A stretch of DNA of 64,000 nt from Thermodesulfovibrionales bacterium. Lineage in GTDB: Bacteria; Nitrospirota; Thermodesulfovibrionia; Thermodesulfovibrionales; SM23-35. Numbering within the stretch: position 1 is the stretch's first letter; each line of letters starts with the position of its first letter. The notes below the pieces were generated by a model. The model was not told the DNA's origin and did no database searches. It saw only the letters and a program-made list of their open reading frames with translations. The position numbers and the translations under genes were made by a program. Location: assembly GCA_030019415.1 (NCBI GenBank), contig JASEEX010000004.1:196-64195 (forward strand), in the 5' to 3' direction. Shown one piece after another: positions 56,817 to 57,086 of this stretch.

Positions 56817-56889
56817 TGGAGGTGAACGGGATCGAACCGATGACCTCCTGCTTGCAAAGCAGGCGCTCTCCCAACTGAGCTACACCCCC
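56817..56889 (-). tRNA. tRNA-Ala (anticodon UGC)
   Basis: GGGGGTGTAGCTCAGTTGGGAGAGCGCCTGCTTTGCAAGCAGGAGGTC...CACCTCCA with the G3:U70 identity pair. CCA is not encoded. The 3' end abuts the trkH stop codon. Confidence 0.95.
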
Positions 56890-56891
56890 AC

Positions 56892-56968
56892 TGGTGGGCC
56901 TAATTGGAGTCGAACCAATCACCTCACCCTTATCAGGGGTGCGCTCTAACCAACTGAGCTATAGGCCC
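56892..56968 (-). tRNA. tRNA-Ile (anticodon GAU)
   Basis: GGGCCTATAGCTCAGTTGGTTAGAGCGCACCCCTGATAAGGGTGAGGT...GGCCCACCA. CCA is encoded. It lies 2 nt upstream of tRNA-Ala. Confidence 0.95.
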
Positions 56969-56980
56969 GGATCAAACTCT
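56969..56980 (-). other. 12-nt match to the universally conserved 5' end of 16S rRNA, fused directly to the tRNA-Ile 5' end
   Basis: The minus strand reads ...caaatgAGAGTTTGATCC|GGGCCTATAGCTCAG. AGAGTTTGATCC is the start of the conserved 16S sequence AGAGTTTGATCCTGGCTCAG. Confidence 0.6.
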
Positions 56981-57020
56981 CATTTGAAATTACAAGGCTG
57001 GTAGGTATGCTATGCACTTT

Positions 57021-57039
57021 TTAGTTTTCTCAAAGAACA
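57021..57039 (-). promoter_or_regulatory. boxA-like rrn antitermination element in the tRNA leader
   Basis: The minus strand TGTTCTTTGAGAAAACTAA resembles rrn boxA (E. coli TGCTCTTTAACAA; TGTTCTTTGAAAACT-type in Gram-positives, as I recall). Confidence 0.45.
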
Positions 57040-57056
57040 TTTTAAGGGAATATGAT

Positions 57057-57086
57057 ACCATACATTAAGCTATTTAACCTTGTCAA
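57057..57086 (-). promoter_or_regulatory. Putative promoter of the tRNA-Ile/Ala transcription unit
   Basis: On the minus strand: TTGACA (57086-57081), an 18-nt spacer, then TATGGT (57062-57057). Confidence 0.4.

Follow-up and report, generated by a model that had tools for sequence, protein, structure and literature searches.

What is the leader of a ribosomal RNA (rRNA) operon doing in front of two transfer RNA (tRNA) genes when no rRNA gene follows? This question is raised by a locus in a 64,000-nucleotide (nt) stretch of the genome of a Thermodesulfovibrionales bacterium (GenBank assembly GCA_030019415.1, contig JASEEX010000004.1, positions 196 to 64,195), which is called the window here. 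On its minus strand, an rrn-type promoter, a boxA-type antiterminator and the very beginning of a 16S rRNA gene run directly into tRNA-Ile(GAU) and tRNA-Ala(UGC). Very probably, the locus is what survives of an rRNA operon, a shell now serving as a two-gene tRNA operon. This reading is based on the homology of the leader, the orthologous position of the locus, the comparison of intact and deleted relatives, the identity of the tRNAs, and the complementary operon of the clade.

The leader and its counterparts in related genomes

Both tRNA genes, proposed to lie 2 nt apart in an earlier sequence-only reading of the locus, were called by the search. tRNA-Ile(GAU) occupies 56892-56968 (minus strand, as all elements of the locus; 71 bits) and encodes its CCA end, which is followed after 2 nt (GT) by tRNA-Ala(UGC) at 56816/56817-56889 (67.8 bits; G3:U70 present). 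The 3' end of tRNA-Ala abuts or overlaps the stop codon of the convergent trkH gene (55368-56816, plus strand; PF02386, E=1.4e-74), and CCA is not encoded: the CTA after the discriminator base is the reverse complement of the trkH stop codon TAG. A missing 23S gene at this junction had been part of the earlier reading, and rRNA families of Rfam, including large-subunit rRNA and 5S, gave zero matches in the whole 64 kilobases (kb).

Base 1 of tRNA-Ile is directly abutted by AGAGTTTGATCC (56969-56980; minus-strand context ...caaatgAGAGTTTGATCC), the predicted exact match to the start of 16S rRNA and the only exact copy of this 12-mer in the window. That a chance match would be unlikely agrees with the roughly 0.008 exact copies expected by simple odds. 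However, a shuffle test allowing one mismatch gave a mean of 0.56 copies, so the count is insufficient on its own and the argument is carried by the position of the stub and by its homology. Together with the preceding tcaaatg, the 12-mer forms a stub (56969-56987) that aligns with the starts of the intact 16S genes in L055, L076, L095 and L011 (loci and contigs of relatives carry L numbers). The caaatg had been likened to common 5' flanks of 16S. These bases lie inside the mature rRNA: position 1 of the Rfam 16S model is located 7 nt upstream of AGAG in relatives (in L011, the match starts at 4460 and AGAG at 4467), and the retained stub thus comprises about 19 nt of mature 16S rRNA (tcaaatgAGAGTTTGATCC). 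The stub is too short for a permissive Rfam scan of 56300-57700, which returned nothing from rRNA, and a blastn comparison of the window with the 16S sequences of relatives gave no match. Rfam matches to Plastid-ycf2, YrlA and ylbH were far below threshold and were rejected; the first two merely overlap the tRNA genes.

Further upstream, the locus contains GTGCATAGCA (57008-57017), the leader (5') strand of a 16S processing stem that has no partner, and the boxA-type antiterminator TGTTCTTTGAGAA (57027-57039), which occurs once in the window and whose extended form TGTTCTTTGAGAAAACTAA goes as far as 57021. The promoter scan located the proposed TTGACA-N18-TATGGT promoter base for base: the -35 hexamer is at 57081-57086, the -10 hexamer is at 57057-57062, and with a spacer of 18 nt the two match the consensus in 10 of 12 positions. 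Transcription would start near 57050.

In order to find counterparts of the locus, a pattern for the T-arm and acceptor of tRNA-Ile was scanned against 185,579 species genomes. This yielded 48 loci, one per genome, almost all of them in metagenome-assembled genomes (MAGs) of Nitrospirota/Thermodesulfovibrionales. About 20 of the 48 are ordinary operons, in which 16S is followed after 60-190 nt by Ile-Ala-23S and in some cases by 5S. The orthologous position is marked by rpsF, which encodes S6 (57219-57572, plus strand) and opens the divergent cluster rpsF-ssb-rpsR-DUF507-DUF507-HNH. In L011, L055 (154-kb contig), L076 (metagenome contig), L073 and L075, an intact 16S gene is divergent from rpsF.

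The earlier proposal to align the leader with real 16S leaders was followed with the 16S genes of relatives, and the match is block for block. The leaders of L055, L076, L095 and L011 align with the window in the rpsF-proximal block, in GTTGACA, in the -10 region, in the TGTTCTTTGA boxA, in GTGCGTAGCATACC, and in the 16S boundary ..TTCAAATG|AGAGTTTGATCCTGGCTCAG (also written ...TTCARATG|AGAGTTTGATCCTGGCTCAG), after which the full 16S follows in the intact relatives. The collinearity extends over about 120 nt, taking in the stem strand and the beginning of 16S. In a comparison of 13 orthologous loci next to rpsF, GTTGACA does not vary, whether or not 16S is present, and the block TTATAMCAYAG...ATAAAATCAA, which separates the two divergent units, hardly varies. 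All genuine 16S leaders that were retrieved contain TGTTCTTTGA, and so do all loci at the rpsF site that have lost 16S. The boxA of the clade, TGTTCTTTGA(A/G)AA, also precedes 23S in spacers; TGTTCTTTGAGAA is identical to it, as expected for the boxA-like element that had been noticed, and only L003 has a slightly degenerate version. L095, a Logan contig from another sample (S6 79% identical), contains a leader near-identical to that of the window, which runs into AGAGTTTGATCCTGGC before the contig ends. As homologous leaders precede intact 16S genes at the same site in relatives, the leader of the window is a genuine rrn leader, and the view of the locus as an rrn operon minus its 16S holds.

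The processing stem points in the same direction. In relatives, GTGCGTAGCA in the leader pairs with TGCTACGCAC, a complementary sequence directly downstream of 16S. The window contains the 5' strand only, with one G-to-A change relative to GTGCGTAGCA; the partner TGCTACGCAC is absent from the window because it was lost with the 16S deletion. Compared to intact relatives, this deletion comprises about 1,560-1,635 nt, beginning with nt 13 of 16S and ending with the last base ahead of tRNA-Ile.

A single deletion of 16S and of everything after tRNA-Ala had been envisaged. Both parts are indeed absent, but not through one event. In L036/L059, the order TamB-TrkA-TrkH> <tRNA-Ala <tRNA-Ile <16S corresponds to the synteny of the window with 16S present and 23S absent, and trkH adjoins tRNA-Ala in L018, L003 and L036, the last with intact 16S. 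Downstream 23S is likewise missing from the close 16S-keeping relatives L055, L076, L038 and L031, and is present only in the more distant L011/L086. The loss of 23S is therefore separate from, and older than, the loss of 16S. No tRNAs are present at the corresponding positions in the TrkH relatives L005/L006 and L007 (71-77% identity) or in the rpsF relatives L096-L098, which confines the arrangement to part of the order; the contig of L094 is too short to include the leader.

These alignments also bear on an alternative that had been considered from the start, namely that a tRNA operon gained an rrn-like promoter and boxA and that the 12-mer is coincidental. Stand-alone Ile-Ala operons that have simple promoters and are devoid of boxA do exist elsewhere in the class (L008, L010, L033, L047, L017, L034) and need not derive from this locus. 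However, recruitment would have to account for about 120 nt that are collinear with real rrn leaders occupying the orthologous site, and the graded remnants found in relatives point to deletion and not to gain. Given the leader homology at an orthologous site, recruitment is not needed, and we give it almost no credence.

Remnants of 16S and the number of deletions

The comparison of the same locus in related genomes, also suggested beforehand, uncovered intact, partly deleted and fully deleted versions. In L019, 16S nt 1 to about 38 are joined to TAATCACCTtCTTT from the 16S 3' end, and Ile, Ala and 5S follow. L024 contains 23 nt of 16S (AGAGTTTGATCCgGGCTCAaAAC) plus the spacer strand of the stem, and its stub is mutated (CCgGGCTCAa). 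In L003, whose TrkH is 83% identical, both stem strands flank a decayed 16S 3' end (aagttgtcgtaatggtagc...tgcgctgagatcacttctttct), and in L046 the stem alone is left. No 16S sequence remains in L015, in L022, or in L018, the S6 of which is 98% identical to that of the window. L018 has the same 2-nt Ile-Ala spacer and the same CTA tail, and the sequence after boxA is entirely unlike that of the window; in L015 and L009, little is left beyond boxA. L022 and L017 have the arrangement Ile-Ala-5S. All 16S-deleted loci at the rpsF site keep promoter and boxA, and the sequence from boxA to the tRNAs has been rewritten lineage by lineage.

Such remnants are relevant for the possibility that the locus is an artefact, that is, a collapsed rrn operon or a mis-join at the stub/tRNA-Ile junction or within tRNA-Ile. 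It is well known that MAG assemblies tend to break at rRNA operons. Moreover, in the Logan contigs of SRR23186780, which represent an independent assembly of the locus and not an established independent sampling, L001 reaches from the trkH side to window position 56950 and L002 starts from the rpsF side at 56921. The two share exactly 30 nt (k-1; 56921-56950) in the tRNA-Ile anticodon arm, which is the signature of a graph branch. This 30-mer is widely conserved among bacteria, and a branch is therefore expected in any metagenome. The stub/tRNA-Ile junction, however, is located inside the single k=31 contig L002, 48 nt from the branch, and the sequence from 16S nt 13 onward shares no k-mer with the 5' end of tRNA-Ile that could cause a false join. 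Furthermore, the rpsF...Ile-Ala...trkH adjacency recurs in L018 and L003 from other studies, and other MAGs contain mutated remnants, truncated in different ways, of a kind that an assembler would not make up. The locus is very unlikely to be an assembly artefact.

In order to count the deletions, a neighbour-joining tree was calculated from concatenated S6-SSB-S18-DUF507a/b sequences (about 550 columns; the deeper nodes are weak). The deleted locus L024 is sister to the intact L076 (100% bootstrap, 94% amino-acid identity), the deleted loci L015 and L046 group together (100%), and so do the intact loci L055 and L075 (96%). These six loci, together with the window and L095, fall into a single clade (97% support). 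L003, L019 and L022 are placed outside this clade, and L003 keeps more of the 16S 3' end than L019. This topology requires at least three independent deletions within the clade and at least one or two outside of it. The tree implies that 16S was lost independently at least 3-5 times at the rpsF site. At the window junction, there is essentially no microhomology with wild-type 16S (GATCCTGGC); a 4-nt microhomology (GGGC) is possible only if the stub had first undergone the T-to-G change seen in L024 (CCgGGC). Convincing 23S remnants between tRNA-Ala and 5S were not found in L019 and L022. A repeated element, aataatgcaattaaccacagagggcactga ... ctctgtgatctctgtggttt, is present in L019 at about 2150-2300 and 2860-3000; one copy precedes the promoter and the other separates tRNA-Ala from 5S, in the place where 23S would be expected.

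Could the stub have been kept because it is useful, for instance in processing, as a determinant, or in coupling tRNA output to ribosome assembly, as a binding site? It is positioned exactly at the RNase P site of tRNA-Ile, and three lineages (the window, L024 and L019) keep the first 12-38 nt of 16S. On the other hand, the closest relative L018 does without a stub, as do L015, L022, L046 and L003, and the existing stubs vary in length and carry mutations, as in L024. A retained function is highly improbable in our view. The tRNAs stayed identical while the stretch between boxA and tRNA was rewritten, which argues for selection on promoter, boxA and tRNAs and for a neutral stub.

The complementary operon and the fate of the two tRNAs

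A metagenome scan with a clade-specific pattern for 16S helix 44 yielded 38 contigs. At least 15 metagenome contigs contain 16S-23S with a spacer of 75-135 nt and no tRNA; Rfam confirmed this layout for L056, L062, L064, L074 and L088, and none of these tRNA-less 16S-23S operons has a 5S in up to 8 kb downstream. The stem pair of this operon type is a different one (AAGTAGG(C/T)C.. in the leader and G(G/A)CCTACTT in the spacer). Across the operon contexts, the 16S sequences are nearly the same: the tRNA-less L071 and L081 are 99.8% and 99.6% identical to the tRNA-bearing L038, and the corresponding values are 98.2% for L093 and L055, 99.0% for L073 and L086, and about 98% for L062 and L058/L069. 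The simplest reading of these identities is that one species carries both operon types and so two 16S copies. With a second operon that contains 16S-23S and lacks tRNAs, the 16S on the rpsF side would be redundant and its two tRNAs would not. A tblastx search of the window for the genes flanking the tRNA-less operons found none.

Several other features of these operons were noted. The second operon type has a conserved block of about 150 nt (ctgagggaacagc...gggaatcag...gaagcctaagca...agatacccac...gcctcag) ahead of boxA in L020, L045, L071, L081 and L092, at about 60-230 nt upstream of 16S, and this block gave no match to any Rfam family. In L012, L051, L032, L049, L019 and L022, 5S is preceded by a promoter-like TTGNNN-17-TATAAT of its own, even in linked operons, which may explain the survival of 5S as an orphan or behind tRNAs. 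In L013 (MAG, 512-kb contig), the 23S match at 1918-3823 covers model positions 1-2925 in 1,906 nt, and this 23S appears to lack about 1 kb or to be mis-assembled.

The tRNAs themselves are strictly conserved. The tRNA-Ile of the window shows 0 differences from the spacer tRNA-Ile of L055, L038, L031, L035 and L016, and its tRNA-Ala shows 0 differences from that of many intact operons, across lineages with only about 80-85% protein identity. The pattern scan found one tRNA-Ile match per genome, long-read MAGs included. The window pair would represent the only tRNA-Ile(GAU) and tRNA-Ala(UGC) genes of the genome. With respect to the CCA end of tRNA-Ala, the window and L018 (CTA) resemble L009 and L015 (CTT) in not encoding it; all other retrieved loci do.

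These data have to be weighed against a dispensable pseudo-operon in decay, with identical Ile and Ala tRNAs in the real rrn operon of the genome. Many relatives contain these tRNAs in full operons, and the leader downstream of boxA is clearly decaying. However, both tRNAs are base-identical to functional spacer tRNAs at only about 80-85% protein identity, in lineages in which the neighbouring leader and spacers were deleted or have diverged. Neither promoter nor boxA varies, the alternative operon type of the clade has no spacer tRNAs, and a single tRNA-Ile per genome was found. We regard a pseudo-operon as improbable, if less so than the other alternatives.

Stand-alone tRNA-Ile-tRNA-Ala pairs are located elsewhere in the genome in L008, L010, L033, L047, L017, L034, L042, L050, L053 and L054, for example after DUF507b (L008) or after a parvulin-like gene (L010, L033, L047). 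A plain TTGACAAT...GGTATTTT promoter precedes them in L008, L017, L042 and L053, and none contains a boxA. These pairs look like older or separate relocations of spacer tRNAs.

For the surviving shell of the window, the following course of events is the most likely. A 16S-tRNA-Ile-tRNA-Ala unit divergent from rpsF, which would have descended from a full 16S-Ile-Ala-23S operon, would have coexisted with a second operon consisting of 16S-23S and no spacer tRNAs. The deletion of about 1.6 kb, with the endpoints given above, then joined the leader to tRNA-Ile. In the present state, the old rrn promoter would start a transcript of about 240 nt, on which the nascent boxA may still be able to load the Nus antitermination complex. 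RNase P would remove the leader of about 80 nt, including boxA and the 16S stub, and its cut at tRNA-Ala would leave a 2-nt trailer on tRNA-Ile; tRNA-Ala would be matured by 3' trimming and CCA addition. The 16S stub would be neutral debris. When the predicted primary transcript was folded by minimum free energy (z = -1.87), the cloverleaves were not recovered and the leader was uninformative.

More broadly, two redundant operons may have decayed reciprocally: one would have kept 16S and 23S and lost its spacer tRNAs and 5S, and the one on the rpsF side would have kept promoter, boxA and the only tRNA-Ile and tRNA-Ala genes (with 5S in some lineages), losing 23S first and then 16S, the latter at least 3-5 times. 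The window would be an end state, in which an rrn promoter and a Nus/boxA leader are selected solely for two tRNAs. We consider the chances of this wider scenario to be evenly balanced.

A number of observations weigh against these interpretations. The window scan found no terminator-like site 3' of tRNA-Ala, where relatives without trkH have an AT-rich hairpin and a T-run. The retention of boxA in deleted loci may partly reflect its proximity to the promoter and not selection. Most of the relatives compared are short-read MAGs, and the co-residence of both operon types is deduced from near-identical 16S and not from physical linkage. In L073 and L075, an rpsF-type leader is joined to the spacer of the other operon. 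The sole-copy status of the tRNAs, the places of the genome's own rRNA genes, the activity of promoter and boxA, and the processing steps are inferences. L020 is likewise mixed, its leader being typical of one operon and its spacer of the other; L073, L075 and L020 may be assembly chimeras at the 16S repeat or true recombinants.

Some neighbouring features complete the description of the region. A probable rpsF promoter, TTGATT-18-TGGTATAAA (57114-57143, plus strand), was assigned by reading the sequence and is absent from the promoter-scan list. DUF507 (PF04368) is represented by two adjacent, overlapping open reading frames (ORFs; 58219-58802), which correspond to its N- and C-terminal halves; the split is kept in relatives. 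At 58811-59376, a small ORF for an HNH endonuclease precedes tRNA-Gln(CTG) and tRNA-Glu(CTC), which are 2 nt apart; in L003 and further relatives, the rpsF cluster is followed by the same trio.

Relation to known systems and implications

How does the locus compare to known arrangements? With a canonical rrn operon of the E. coli rrnA/D/H type it shares the Sigma-70 promoter, the boxA leader, the leader-side strand of the 16S stem, and the same two spacer tRNAs in the same order. It differs by its 12-19 nt 16S stub and by the absence of 23S, 5S, a spacer boxA and the 3' strand of the stem. Thus, a promoter with boxA leader and Ile-Ala spacer tRNAs are present, whereas 16S, 23S/5S and a paired stem are not. 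Intact tRNA genes behind a predicted promoter, with no other cistron, are what would be expected of a stand-alone tRNA operon. Having no rRNA genes, the locus fails as an rrn operon and passes as an rrn leader plus tRNA operon; as a matter of class assignment, it falls among the documented intermediates or end states of operon fragmentation.

TGTTCTTTGAGAA equals the rrn boxA of the clade and is located about 10-25 nt after the presumed transcription start, as in rrn leaders. It agrees in 10 of 13 positions with TGCTCTTTAACAA, the boxA of E. coli. Binding of Nus factors is conceivable by analogy. In contrast to rRNA operons, however, the unit of about 240 nt with two tRNAs only offers no obvious role for antitermination.

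Classic cases of unlinked rRNA genes include Rickettsia and Thermus. Unlinked rRNA genes are widespread, and 16S and 23S count as unlinked when they are more than 1.5 kb apart. Dispersed rRNA genes are well documented in a preprint that classes genomes by the distance between 16S and 23S (Brewer et al., bioRxiv 10.1101/705046). The dispersal of operon parts is a common feature: relatives of the window contain 16S-Ile-Ala without 23S, 16S-23S without 5S, and Ile-Ala-5S, and both unlinked (L036, L055, L038, L031, L076) and directly linked, tRNA-less layouts (L056, L062, L064, others) occur among them. The difference is that 16S stubs at the old site reveal intermediates here; the preprint text that was searched makes no mention of Nitrospirae, operon remnants or tRNA-only shells.

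For Thermodesulfovibrio sp. N1, one descriptive sentence on the rRNA arrangement has been published (PMC5165239). It fits the tRNA-less, 5S-less 16S-23S contigs and the Ile-Ala-5S loci L019, L022 and L017; the paper connects the arrangement neither with 16S remnants nor with a tRNA/5S locus derived from an rrn operon. In contrast, the window stems from another, uncultured lineage, and its locus has no 5S. In the literature searched, no earlier description of such a locus was found, which is not proof that none exists.

There is also a parallel to duplication-degeneration-complementation, where redundant copies lose complementary parts until both are needed, in this case 16S+23S versus the tRNAs (with or without 5S). 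The process would act here on the cistrons of an operon and not on regulatory modules of a gene, and the co-residence of both copies is deduced from 16S identity.

How an operon under tight common control can be dismantled without killing the cell has so far mostly been deduced from end states. Here, one order and one orthologous site offer all stages: the full operon, 16S-Ile-Ala, a mini-16S consisting of both ends, a 12-nt stub, and nothing. The series suggests a rule according to which essential spacer tRNAs shield the promoter and leader of a redundant operon while its rRNA genes are deleted piecemeal. In practical terms, long 16S-ITS-23S amplicons (ITS, internal transcribed spacer) would miss or misjudge these lineages, and those who annotate MAGs should be prepared to meet rrn-like leaders ahead of tRNAs. 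The locus furthermore represents a natural test of whether boxA and Nus loading matter for a transcript that contains tRNAs only. If the interpretation is true, the Thermodesulfovibrionales preserve a stepwise record of rRNA operons coming apart. The single locus is a relic, and the comparative series is an unusually clear record of rRNA operon disassembly.

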